Source: a virus
Lineage: Duplodnaviria > Heunggongvirae > Uroviricota > Caudoviricetes
IMG/VR virus record: IMGVR_UViG_2778261567_000016
Location: 1 to 16,049 of that record
Length of the DNA stretch: 16,049 bases
Direction: 5' to 3' (one strand)
Position numbers: made by a program. Positions 6,001 through 9,000 of this stretch are shown piece after piece (position 1 is the stretch's first letter; each line of letters starts with the position of its first letter).

Positions 6001-9000
6001 CTTCTGGGAAACGTCTTTCCTGTAGTCCAGTATTGTACTGATTGTGCGCTTACACCCAGCTTACGGGCTAGTTCAGCCTGACTCCAGCCTTTTGTTTTCA
6101 GCATCATTGCTATCCGATTTTCTGTGCTTTTTACATTCTTCATGGTGAGTTCCTGTCGAGGCTTTATACACATAAATATTAACTTGATTTTAGTGTATTC
6201 GATCCTTTTGAAACTTGCATGTTAATTTATTCTTGATGTATTCTTGATTTGTAAAGTTAATATTGGAGCTGTGCTGTGATAAAACTGAATGATTACGACA
6301 TGTTGCGTAAATTGATTCCTCAAAACGCCATAGCAAGATACATCGGTGTTACGCCACAAGCGGTGAACCTGTGGTTTTCTAAAAACTCCGTTCCTTCTCG
6401 TTTTGTTTTACGGGTGTGTGAATTAGTTGAATGGAAGGTTACTCCGCATGGGTTAAGACCTGATCTATACCCTTATCCCGAAGATGGAATTCCTGATTCG
6501 TTACGAAAATCAAACGGTATTACCAGAGATTAAAGACTGACTGTCACGAGCAGTAACTCACGATGCATACGTTTTGGCGTGAGTTCTGAAATGTCATCCT
6601 CAAGGAGTAATCAGATGAATACCGCAATTTTTACCGATAAAGCATCCATGACCAGCGTTGAGATCGCAGAGCTGGTGGGTAAGCGACATGACAATGTGAA
6701 ACGCACTATTGAAACATTAGCCAAAGGTGGTGTTGTCCGGTCTCCTCAAATTGAGGTTTCCGAAAGAATCAATAACTTAGGGGTTAAAGTTCAACACGAG
6801 CATTATCTGTTTGAAGGCGAACAAGGCAAACGCGACAGCATCATTGTTGTCGCACAGCTTTGCCCTGAATTCACCGCCTGCCTGGTAGATCGCTGGCGTG
6901 AACTGGAAAAACAAATCCGCAAACCAATGAGCCAGATCGAAATGGTTGCTGCAATGGCGCTTGAAGCTGTTCGCCAACAAAGACGTCTTGAGCAGGTGGA
7001 AGAGAAAGTCACCTACGTTACTGAAACCGTCGAGCGAATCAAAAGAGGCACCATACGCGATGGTTATGCAGGCTACCGTCAGCTGGTAGCGAAAACGGGT
7101 ATGTCAGATGCGAAATGCCGCAATCTGGTGAACGCATATCAGATCCCTACCGACCCCCATGAGTTCATGAGGCCGGATGGATTGTTGTCTCGTCGCGCAA
7201 TTGTTGCTGTGGAACCGTTTATGGCTGCTTTTTATCGGGTTATGGAGGAAGCAGAACCGCGAGGGACTTGCTGGTATTACCCGAAAATGGGGGTATTTCA
7301 GGTTATTGGTTGGCAGAAATAAGAAAGGCCGGCAGAGAAAACCGGCCAGTCGGGTTTATCGTCGGAGATATTACGTGAAAAACAATATCAAAGTTTTCGA
7401 TTTTAAATCAAGCACTGGTGAATTGTTGTCATCAGTTCGTAGTGTGGTCATTGATTCAACACCATGGTTTTTTGCCGTGGATATATGTAACGCGCTGGGG
7501 CTGACAAATACTGCTATCTCCCTTCAGTCCATCGATGATGAAGATAAAACCGAATATAAGGATTACTTAGGTTCGGGACGTAAGCCTTTGCTGGTCAATG
7601 AATCCGGGCTCTATGCGCTGATTATCAAAAGTCGAAAAAAACAGGCAAGACGTTTTAAACGGTGGATTACATCGGAGGTAATTCCGTCAATTCGTAAAAC
7701 GGGGAATTACAGTCTTACCACAATGACATCCCTACCAGATTTTAGCGATCCGGCTGCTGCTGCCCGTGCCTGGGCGGATGAATATGAGGCTAAAAACAGA
7801 GCAATTAGTTACGTTCATCGTCAGGCCCAATACATCGAACATCTGGAAAATTTATTCCAGCCTGGCATGACACCGGTTCAGTTCTGCAAGCAACTTAATG
7901 GAGTAAATGTTCAGCGTATCACAGCATTTCTGGAGGCTCACAACTGGCTTTATGACGAGCGTCCTGAATCGCGAAGCCCCGCATGGCGTGTAAAGGCATA
8001 TGCCCGAGATCTGTATCTGACCGAACGTCACCACTATATCGATTCAGGTTATGAAGAAGGGTTTTATTCGTATACACCAGTTCTTCTCCAGAAAGGGGCG
8101 GTCTGGATTTATCGCCAGTATCTTAGAGGTGCATTACCCATGAAGAGAAACTGGAATGGCGAATTTACCCACGATAAAGAACTGGCGGGTGCTGCATGAT
8201 TGTTCTCCAAAATATTGATTCCTCAATTTCGGGACGTTACACTGTTCAGGCACCTTATAAAACGGGTGCCGGGATTGGCGTCCTGAAATTGATTACTGAG
8301 CATAACCGCGCTCATGCGGTTTTTTCGTGTCATGAGCATTACTACGCCCAAATTATGGTGGGGCGTACAGGGCCGACTTCGGTCGGGCCGGGTTCGGTAG
8401 TCTCCGGTAACGCCAACCCTGTACGTCTCACCACCTCTGTGATTGGCGTCCCATGTGGTGAGTTTTCTAAAAAACTGACTACCGGGGCTGTCACTATGAC
8501 TACTCTCCCAACCCTCTCTCAACCTGAAATTGCCATCGTTGATGGTCAGGCTGTTACATCTTCTTTGGCTGTTGCTGACTTTTTCTCTAAACGTCATGAC
8601 GATGTTCTGAAAAAGATCCGCATTTTGGATTGTTCTCCAGAGTTTTGTGCCCGCAATTTTGCGGAGACATCAATTTTGGTACGCCAGCCCAACGGCGGTA
8701 CTCGCAAACTACCTTGCTATCAAATAACCCGCGACGGCTTTGCGTTTCTTGCTATGGGCTTCACTGGTAAACGTGCTGCCCGGTTCAAAGAGGCATACAT
8801 CAATGCCTTTAACCAGATGGAGAAGAGTTTATCAGGTGCCGATGCGTCTGATATGTCAGCTGTCGCACGAAACGCCAGAGGCGTATACCTGCATTTGCGT
8901 GAAATCCATCAAATCTGGACAAGCCAGCTTTATCCAATGCTTAAGGCTGTTGAATCTCCGCTGGCCAGCAAACTGTACGACCGTGTAGGTGATGCTGTTT

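Follow-up and report, generated by a model that had tools for sequence, protein, structure and literature searches.

Small antisense RNAs with a shared fold have been described in several phages. In P1 and P7, the antisense RNA c4, with a length of 77 nt, blocks the ribosome-binding site of ant, and the RNAs of the C4 family measure about 77 nt (PMC12197685). The CI RNA of P4 has also been described (PMC4825925 and PMC3632133), and pairs of IsrK and C4 in lambdoid prophages were noted previously (PMC3632133). In Gifsy-1, the homolog was detected on Northern blots as a processed RNA of about 80 nt. The a1-a' pairing was proven there by compensatory mutants (G28/C162 and G31/C159), and compensatory mutants also proved the long helix. 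The published Gifsy-1 model treats the stretch as an mRNA leader with orf45, which is turned on by IsrK, and the toxicity of IsrK was not prevented when STnc1160 was expressed constitutively (PMC4825925). In view of this result, trans-repression by an excised RNA is extended to the lambdoid versions only by analogy. The C4-type processing in P1 and P4 is carried out by RNase P. The put RNAs of HK022 are built differently, with two adjacent stem-loops that act in cis on RNA polymerase, and are not known to have an antisense target or a long closing helix.

Herein, a DNA stretch of 16,049 nt from a virus of the Caudoviricetes (IMG/VR record IMGVR_UViG_2778261567_000016; referred to as the window) was analyzed. 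Judged by its sequence, the element at positions 8351-8438 belongs to the C4/CI family of small phage antisense RNAs, of which it is a textbook example. Our main reading, to which a probability of roughly 85% is assigned, is that a C4/CI-type antisense "immunity" RNA forms part of a regulatory cassette that is portable and resides in a lambdoid E. coli prophage. This cassette is arranged in the order of a putative promoter, IsrK with a1, b1, and a leaky terminator, C4, the sites a2 and b2, a ribosome-binding site, and the ATG at 8496 of a Rha-family gene. The element is of an already known kind and represents no new kind of mechanism.

Fold, strand, and family of the element

An inverted-repeat search of the window returned a closing helix of 17 bp on the plus strand. 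Its arms, located at 8356-8372 and 8417-8433, are 44 nt apart and 88% complementary at the DNA level. The mismatches are G8361/T8428 and G8363/T8426, both of which become G-U pairs in the plus strand only. The 16-bp helix with a 44-nt gap that was proposed in a sequence-only reading of the window is thus borne out as 17 bp with two G-U pairs. When 17-nt inverted repeats were required to have 15 or more Watson-Crick pairs and a spacing of 3-60 nt, it was the sole one in the window, and only 6% of the dinucleotide shuffles of the whole window contained one. Minimum-free-energy folding, which had been suggested as a check, gave -47.7 kcal/mol for the plus strand (z = -5.45, with 0 of 200 shuffles as good) versus -39.5 kcal/mol for the minus strand (z = -4.08).

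The plus-strand fold contains three helices. The 5' arm of the closing helix (8356-8372) overlaps a conserved AUG at 8355-8357. Hairpin 1 (8373-8386), with the pattern CCGAC-UUCG-GUCGG, was found in both the fold and the Rfam match, and four of its five pairs are compensatory. This is the UUCG hairpin noticed in the sequence-only reading, which overlooked hairpin 2 (8387-8408). Hairpin 2 has the pattern GCCGG-12 nt-CCGGU, and its loop at 8392-8403 is the antisense segment b'. The unpaired junction at 8409-8416 constitutes the antisense segment a', with ACGCCAA at 8410-8416. The 3' arm (8417-8433), which was identified by the repeat search, the fold, and covariation, is followed by an unpaired CC.

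The Rfam scan gave a match on the plus strand to the C4 antisense RNA (RF01695) at 8351-8438. The score of 82.3 bits exceeds the cut-off of 45 (E = 3e-15), and the match covers the full model, positions 1-87 of 87. Within the window, no tRNA or tmRNA was found by ARAGORN. Covariation was measured in 24 homologs, including the P4 CI RNA, a P1-like c4, and Gifsy-1 STnc1160. In this set, 99.4% of the helix cells are paired and 14 of the 27 pairs are compensatory, whereas slid controls reached at most 47% paired. For the closing helix by itself, 99.8% of the cells are paired, with both-sided changes in 9 of the 17 pairs. The two G-U pairs are kept or compensated in the homologs, and this conservation fixes the plus strand as the RNA strand. 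These data support the earlier proposal of a functional, strand-specific plus-strand RNA.

The predicted mature RNA extends from about 8357 to 8433 or 8435, equal to 77-79 nt; these ends were placed on the basis of the 77-nt size of P1/P7 c4. The suggestion of a processing site or a small RNA was right in essence, as the family size of about 77 nt (PMC12197685) and the species of about 80 nt in Gifsy-1 (PMC4825925) indicate.

The C4 model and the isrK model both match P4 (CI RNA and seqA region), a P1-like phage (c4 adjoining icd), Gifsy-1 (orf45/STnc1160 region), and several Stx and P88-like phages. The C4 match in P4 is identified with the P4 CI RNA. The isrK-C4 tandem was present in 9 of 10 other phages examined. 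Of 5426 complete E. coli genomes, 1738 contained a related stretch, with up to five per genome, when positions 8196-8560, a segment that extends 65 bases into the Rha gene, were used as the query. In RefSeq and phage records, the RNA pair carries no ncRNA feature and is masked by a single long CDS labeled "Rha family" or "antirepressor". The value of the finding is mainly for the annotation of IsrK-C4 cassettes. Recognizing the cassette also offers an explanation of how lambdoid prophages, Stx prophages among them, may keep their anti-repressor-type genes silent, and the cassette predicts allele-specific cross-talk between prophages.

Upstream IsrK-like RNA and paired target sites

The module begins with a putative promoter on the plus strand at 8215-8243, composed of a -35 hexamer TTGATT (8215-8220), a 17-nt spacer, and a -10 hexamer TACACT (8238-8243), and a putative transcription start near 8250. 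Among 43 loci, the module homology starts at about 8207, and the flanks upstream differ. The promoter was not listed by a simple sigma-70 scan because only 8 of 12 positions match the consensus, so the promoter call rests on positional conservation. Hexamers of the pattern TTGNNN/TANNNT also precede isrK at an equal distance in Gifsy-1, P4, P88-like, and Stx phages.

An IsrK-like sRNA at 8250-8326 on the plus strand was matched by Rfam RF01394 (isrK Hfq-binding RNA) with 60.1 bits against a cut-off of 50. It consists of two 5' hairpins and an intrinsic terminator and is located directly upstream of C4. The terminator-like hairpin seen upstream in the sequence-only reading is real; its stem at 8304-8321, followed by the U run, forms the end of the IsrK-like sRNA. 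Two decoy or target copies lie in this RNA on the plus strand, namely a1 (UUGGCGU, 8275-8281) in the loop of IsrK hairpin 2, and b1 (8291-8301). The Rfam model c4-a1b1 (RF03163) matches 8237-8289 with 21.7 bits, which is below threshold. The pairing between a' and a1 is preserved in 98% of the cells, with six of seven pairs compensatory. For b' and b1, 93% of the cells are paired and 8 of 11 pairs are compensatory.

The second pair of sites is found downstream of C4 on the plus strand. Site a2 (GATTGGCGTCC, 8441-8451) is complementary to a', contains the core UUGGCGU at 8443-8449, and is an exact repeat of 8273-8283. This 11-mer has exactly two copies in the window, one on each side of C4. Site b2 (GACUACCGGG, 8477-8486) is complementary to the b' loop and overlaps a Shine-Dalgarno-like GGGG at 8484-8487, located 9-12 nt before the ATG at 8496. 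In most other alleles, the end of b2 reads GGAGG. Beyond these copies, no further target sites were found elsewhere in the window above the level of chance.

The specificity of loops and sites was compared between own and non-own partners. The longest complementary run with G-U allowed was too noisy, as non-own runs reached up to 12 nt. This score was therefore replaced by RNAduplex energies and column-based counts. The duplex energy was -8.8 kcal/mol with own sites versus -4.3 kcal/mol with non-own sites for a', and -14.1 versus -7.3 kcal/mol for b'. In the column-based count, 96.5% of the b'-b2 cells are paired, and 7 of 10 pairs are compensatory; the a'-a2 pair was left out of these counts, since MAFFT placed a 3-nt gap within the site and the register is shifted by one in some alleles. 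The b'-b2 duplex in the window is short, with eight Watson-Crick and two G-U pairs, and the Shine-Dalgarno sequence is weak. At least 15 b' alleles and about nine a' alleles co-vary with their targets. The loops and the sites co-evolve allele by allele.

The repeat search also returned GUGGUGAG at 8455-8462 on the plus strand, which is complementary to positions 8427-8434 of the C4 3' arm. In 35 sequences, 98.6% of the cells of this pairing are paired, with two compensatory pairs. It is possible that GUGGUGAG and the 3' arm form an alternative helix, which would present a2 in a loop.

Probable control of the Rha-like gene and the open frame through the cassette

The gene downstream of b2 (8496-9059, plus strand) encodes a Rha-family phage regulator of the anti-repressor type with 187 amino acids (Pfam Phage_pRha, 94.3 bits). 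The protein also matches PHROG 821 and 995, annotated as "transcriptional regulator", and anti-repressor families more weakly. The C4 RNA probably silences this anti-repressor-type prophage gene, by analogy with the described systems. Transcripts reading past the IsrK terminator would undergo processing that frees an RNA of about 77 nt, as for P1/P7 c4, the P4 CI RNA, and Gifsy-1 STnc1160. The excised RNA would then bind sister transcripts by pairing at a2 and b2, which would mask the Shine-Dalgarno region. Such pairing would block translation of the Rha-like protein and probably provoke premature termination, and the anti-repressor would be kept off in the lysogen. The short IsrK may compete for the C4 loops and relieve the block, since it carries the same a and b sequences.

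A long open frame at 8196-9059 on the plus strand, which is in phase with the Rha gene, runs through both IsrK and C4. The start codon of this frame and the stop codon of the preceding Bro-N gene overlap as ATGA, and the same overlap was found with six different upstream genes. The frame is stop-free in all 42 distinct leaders, and all 27 distinct positions of stop triplets are out of phase. Residues 15-110 are matched by Pfam Phage_ASH (PF10554) with 41.2 bits. In the Rha-linked lambdoid lineage, the start codon of the long frame either overlaps the stop of the upstream gene or is fused to that gene. The leader was also compared at the protein level, where its amino-acid identity was no higher than in two closed frames and far below the nucleotide identity. 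In one example pair, the leader has a nucleotide identity of 0.69 and an amino-acid identity of 0.44, versus 0.88 and 0.88 for the Rha part.

These results bear on the reading that the stretch is simply protein-coding and specifies the "Ash" domain at the N-terminus of a Rha-family protein of 287 aa, with the helix being incidental. The Phage_ASH match, the single long Rha-family CDS in RefSeq, the lack of in-phase stops in the 42 leaders, and the ATGA overlaps all fit this reading. However, Phage_ASH is a protein family, for which selection on the amino-acid sequence is expected, and the leader fails that test, while its substitutions obey base-pairing rules. Phage_ASH also matches the old P4 "cI" CDS, which overlies the C4 match in P4, and the phase is broken in Gifsy-1, P88-like phages, and two other phages. 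We consider a purely coding role improbable. Translation as part of the Rha-like protein with a conserved amino-acid sequence had been named as one of the observations that would speak against an RNA; the frame is indeed open and in phase with Rha, but amino-acid conservation is absent, and so the RNA reading stands. That the element is a palindrome acting at the DNA level, as a cruciform or as a site bound by protein, or an inverted repeat that arose by chance has a negligible probability. Although 6% of shuffled windows hold one repeat of such quality, the homologs keep the G-U pairs, which would turn into C-A mismatches in the opposite strand. The C4 match (E = 3e-15) and the covariation refute this candidate, and the nested hairpins also speak against it. 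The comparison with HK022 put, a cis-acting antitermination RNA that modifies RNA polymerase, is not supported, and such a role is very improbable, even though the position in the early-right transcript just past a terminator and the strong strand-specific structure speak for it. The full-length match is to a different, well-defined family, the fold has three helices with a 17-bp closing stem, and the terminator is part of the sRNA of the module itself. The loops, instead of being conserved for protein binding, co-vary with sites at the downstream ribosome-binding site, which points to antisense pairing and away from a modification of RNA polymerase.

A purely cis-acting leader switch like that of the published Gifsy-1 model, with no excised trans repressor, is a possible but less favored explanation. 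According to this explanation, the C4 fold is only "structure B" of an isrK-orf-Rha mRNA, with the start site AUG 8355 concealed in the 5' arm. The silent "structure A" results when a1/b1 pair with a'/b' within one molecule, and the short IsrK in trans opens the leader, so that translation is coupled, or here fused in frame, to Rha. Mutational and native-gel data and the translation of orf45 on western blots (Hershko-Shalev 2016, PMC4825925) favor the switch. The 5' arm carries a conserved AUG, which in the window is in phase with the Rha ATG, and the a'-a1 and b'-b1 covariation fits equally well. The switch leaves unexplained why a2 and b2, on the Shine-Dalgarno region, co-vary with the same loops, why the proven trans repressor of P1/P7 has the same fold, and why a species of about 80 nt accumulates. 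The cis switch and the trans antisense RNA are not mutually exclusive, and pairing in cis cannot be distinguished from pairing in trans by sequence alone.

The in-phase frame over C4 raises the further point that ribosomes may traverse the C4 RNA in some transcripts. We speculate, with doubts outweighing confidence, that early-right transcripts are translated straight through the cassette, melting the terminator and the C4 fold and producing an N-terminally extended Rha; the idea is based on the stop-free, in-phase leader of the Rha-linked lambdoid lineage. If true, this would be a translation-driven bypass of RNA immunity, and freely reassorting a'/b' alleles would amount to many RNA immunity types governing the cross-talk of co-resident prophages. 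We know of no description of such a bypass for lambdoid prophages, and it would resemble P4 eta/kil.

Comparison with known systems

The immI region of P1/P7, arranged as a1 b1 - c4 - a2 b2 - icd - ant, has the Rfam family and the three-helix fold in common with the window, with a C4 score of 75.9 bits for a P1-like phage. The targets on both sides, the location of b2 on the ribosome-binding site of the next ORF, and the size of about 77 nt are also shared, and the loops carry the specificity as in P1/P7 heteroimmunity (PMC12197685). Unlike in P1/P7, the upstream a1/b1 element in the window is a terminated IsrK-type sRNA, and its lambdoid early-right operon carries a Rha-family gene as cargo in place of icd-ant. 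Processing and trans-repression in the window would follow P1/P7 by analogy.

In P4 (CI RNA, seqA, and seqC), the C4 match of 74.9 bits and the isrK match of 60.8 bits occur in the same order as in the window. A long ORF also runs through the RNA region and matches Phage_ASH, and the following ORFs are similar in their first codons, with MATTLTPSHPEF in P4 and MTTLPTLSQPEI in the window. P4 differs in being a satellite in which the cassette controls replication and derepression genes, with termination at timm and with eta/kil as nested genes. The HK022 put RNAs are likewise structured plus-strand RNAs in an early phage transcript, but their architecture and mode of action are different from the antisense pairing proposed for the window.

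The isrK-orf45(STnc1160)-anrP region of Gifsy-1 in Salmonella (Hershko-Shalev 2016) is the closest in context. Both are lambdoid prophages with an IsrK promoter, sRNA, terminator, C4-like RNA, and anti-repressor gene, and the a allele ACGCCAA/UUGGCGU is identical. No homology was detected between Gifsy-1 AnrP and the Rha-like protein of the window (E = 0.69), and the b' loop of Gifsy-1 is 4 nt shorter. The ORF starting from the C4 5' arm in Gifsy-1 ends at the anrP start (ATGA), whereas the corresponding ORF in the window is fused in frame to the Rha-like gene.

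A C4-family RNA and its conserved fold

The window was scanned against Rfam at curated thresholds, and two matches were returned, both on the plus strand. The C4 antisense RNA family (RF01695) matched 8351-8438 with 82.3 bits (cut-off 45), covering the entire model. The isrK family (RF01394) matched 8250-8326 with 60.1 bits against a cut-off of 50. A terminator search, together with the Rfam match, identified the terminator-like hairpin that had been noticed just upstream as isrK's own 3' hairpin and U run. A sub-threshold match to the Rfam family 'a1, b1 targets of C4', which overlaps isrK in Gifsy-1, was found at 8237-8289. 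ARAGORN found no tRNA in the window. The same order, isrK followed by C4, was matched in P4, Gifsy-1, P88-like phages, and several Stx phages. The P4 matches coincide with the region known from the literature as seqA and CI RNA, the Gifsy-1 C4 match lies on the orf45/STnc1160 stretch, which has isrK on one side and anrP on the other, and in a P1-like phage C4 immediately precedes icd. The element is, with high confidence, a C4-family RNA, a kind that is already known and present in Rfam.

The closing helix was recovered by a repeat search where the sequence-only reading had placed it, as 17 bp with arms at 8356-8372 and 8417-8433 and 44 nt between them. Only two mismatches occur at the DNA level (8361/8428 and 8363/8426), and both are G/T. 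Inside the helix are hairpin 1 (CCGAC-UUCG-GUCGG, 8373-8386, plus strand) and hairpin 2 (GCCGG-12 nt-CCGGU, 8387-8408, plus strand). The folding energy was -47.7 kcal/mol (z = -5.45) for the plus strand and -39.5 kcal/mol (z = -4.08) for the minus strand. No second inverted repeat of equal quality was found within the window; among shuffled windows, 6% hold one. This indicates that the repeat by itself is only mildly surprising; the earlier claim that it was unlikely by chance is carried by the family match and the homologs, which are decisive, and not by the repeat alone.

The C4 fold was compared in an alignment of 24 distinct sequences, comprising 14 from 80 IMG/VR loci found via the Rha protein together with other phages. 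Standard pairs filled 99.4% of pair cells, and both-side changes were found in 14 of 27 pairs. When partners were slid by 1-3 columns as controls, at most 47% were paired and at most 3 pairs co-varied. G-U and U-G pairs are frequent in the C4 helices and are kept across homologs, which indicates that the plus strand is the functional strand and bears out the earlier argument from G-U strand asymmetry. The family match and the covariation rule out a chance inverted repeat, a DNA palindrome, and a put-like antiterminator. The sequence-only reading was right in proposing a functional plus-strand small RNA, and its comparison with the put RNAs of HK022 is not supported.

Exposed segments and their target sites

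Two segments are single-stranded in the plus-strand fold. Segment b' (8392-8403) is the 12-nt loop of hairpin 2, and segment a' (8409-8416) lies in the junction and contains ACGCCAA. Within b', CGGUAGUC is the exact complement of GACUACCG at 8477-8484 (site b2), and the pairing continues by two G-U pairs into GGGG, 9-12 nt before the ATG at 8496. The ACGCCAA of a' has its complement, UUGGCGU, at two places, 8443-8449 (a2) and 8275-8281 (a1), and a1 occupies the loop of IsrK's second hairpin. IsrK also contains b1 (8291-8301, plus strand), a degenerate version of the b site. The 11-mer GATTGGCGTCC has two exact copies in the window, one on either side of C4.

The loops differ sharply across homologs, with at least 15 core alleles for b' and about 9 for a'. 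Matching sites were present at every locus compared, whatever its loop allele, and the a and b alleles reassort among loci (L004-L091). Loop-target pairing was counted in a 35-sequence alignment: b'-b2 was 96.5% paired (7 of 10 pairs compensatory), a'-a1 98% (6 of 7), and b'-b1 93% (8 of 11), and slid controls reached at most 51%. By RNAduplex, b' gave -14.1 kcal/mol with its own partner versus -7.3 with a foreign one, and a' gave -8.8 versus -4.3 kcal/mol. The allele combinations with matching targets suggest many RNA 'immunity types' in E. coli and Salmonella prophages. The allele reassortment, like the open frame described below, is a modest lead.

Two further possible pairings were observed. 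Downstream of a2, GUGGUGAG (8455-8462) has its complement in the 3' arm of C4 (8427-8434). Across 35 sequences this helix was 98.6% paired and had two compensatory pairs, and the P1-like and P4 versions appear to match it too. It would make a possible alternative hairpin with a2 in the loop. A 14-nt inverted repeat with 93% complementarity (8223-8236 with 8279-8292) links the spacer of the putative promoter with the 3' side of the a1 hairpin and, judged from sequence, could form only in transcripts starting farther upstream.

The open frame and its genomic setting

An open frame at 8196-9059 spans IsrK and C4 and shares its phase with the Rha gene. Pfam Phage_ASH (PF10554) covers exactly the translated IsrK-C4 DNA (8238-8525), and RefSeq has one long Rha-family CDS across this stretch. 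The leader at 8196-8495 was compared with those of L001-L080 upstream of position 1201. The Rha-phase frame had 0 stops in 42 of 42 distinct leaders, and the other frames averaged 3.0 and 5.7. All 27 distinct stop-triplet positions in the Rha-linked set were out of phase, for which the crude chance expectation is (2/3)^27. In six unrelated upstream contexts (8193-8199 in the window, and equivalents in L001, L005, L008, L013, and L058), the long ORF's ATG and the preceding gene's TGA overlap as ATGA; other loci have the frame fused to that gene. These two arrangements indicate that the left mosaic boundary behaves like a gene boundary, despite the putative promoter just inside it.

The leader frame did not exceed the two closed frames in amino-acid identity, which lay far below nucleotide identity; in the Rha part it equals or exceeds nucleotide identity. 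The phase is broken in Gifsy-1, P88-like phages, and two other phages. The leader frame appears to be kept open, yet not as a conserved protein. Translation as part of a conserved Rha-like protein had been named as evidence against a functional RNA; the frame is indeed open and in phase, but the conceptual protein is not conserved, so the RNA reading stands. The old P4 'cI' CDS (L090 8168-8584, minus strand) is likewise matched by Phage_ASH and lies over the Rfam C4 match of P4; the family may be largely a translation of RNA genes. In P4, the eta ORF offers a precedent for an open frame across such RNA: its translation, from an upstream promoter, passes through the immunity region.

The window is a lambdoid prophage with an integrase, a cI-like repressor, a cro-like gene, an anti-repressor-like pair, the IsrK-C4 cassette, a Rha-family gene, and replication genes. 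Three anti-repressor-type genes lie in a row (6579-9059), flanked by the cro-like gene and the replication genes: a Rha/Ant gene (6579-7322), a Bro-N/Ant gene (7177-8199) with a 146-nt overlap onto the first, and the Rha-like gene (8496-9059, ATG at 8496). Near-identical DNA is found in E. coli phage 1720a-02 and many STEC genomes. A query with 8196-8560, a span that takes in the opening 65 bases of the Rha gene, gave related copies in 1738 of the 5426 complete E. coli genomes, up to five in some. In public records, including phage records, a single long CDS covers both RNAs (for example NZ_CP027586.1, locus L081, 2179-3342), variously labeled Rha family, antirepressor, peptidase, or transcriptional regulator. 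An ncRNA feature over IsrK-C4 was absent from all public records examined, and the practical value of recognising the element is annotation.

Proposed silencing and comparison with known systems

It is proposed with moderate confidence that C4 would pair at a2 and b2 and silence the Rha-like gene, with IsrK as a decoy competing for the C4 loops. C4 excision, action in trans, and any effect on termination are parts of the model that we infer. A leader switch acting only in cis, as in the Gifsy-1 model, accounts for the a1/b1 pairing and may well coexist with trans repression, but it leaves unexplained why the a2/b2 sites co-vary and lie on the Shine-Dalgarno region.

The starts of the downstream ORFs are alike in the window (MTTLPTLSQPEI, 8496-8531), in P1-like Icd (MATIPTPTHPEF, L089 from 1747), and in the P4 ORF (MATTLTPSHPEF, L090 from about 3258 in reverse-complement coordinates). 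The similarity spans about the first dozen codons of otherwise unrelated cargo genes, so the cassette appears to have its right boundary within the coding region.

P4-like IsrK-C4 systems in lambdoid prophages were already noted by Barquist et al. (PMC3632133). In Gifsy-1, the a1-a' pairing was proven by the compensatory mutants G28/C162 and G31/C159, a processed RNA of approximately 80 nt, STnc1160, accumulates, and G114/C175, meant as a test of the long helix, altered translation only mildly (PMC4825925). The same authors likened IsrK to P4 seqA and STnc1160 to P4 CI RNA (PMC4825925). The c4 of P1/P7 is a 77-nt antisense RNA that binds to complementary stretches around the anti-repressor operon's ribosome-binding site, and P1/P7 heteroimmunity arises from c4 loop differences (PMC12197685). 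The cassette in the window has the same design, with loops complementary to sites at the ribosome-binding site of the downstream gene.
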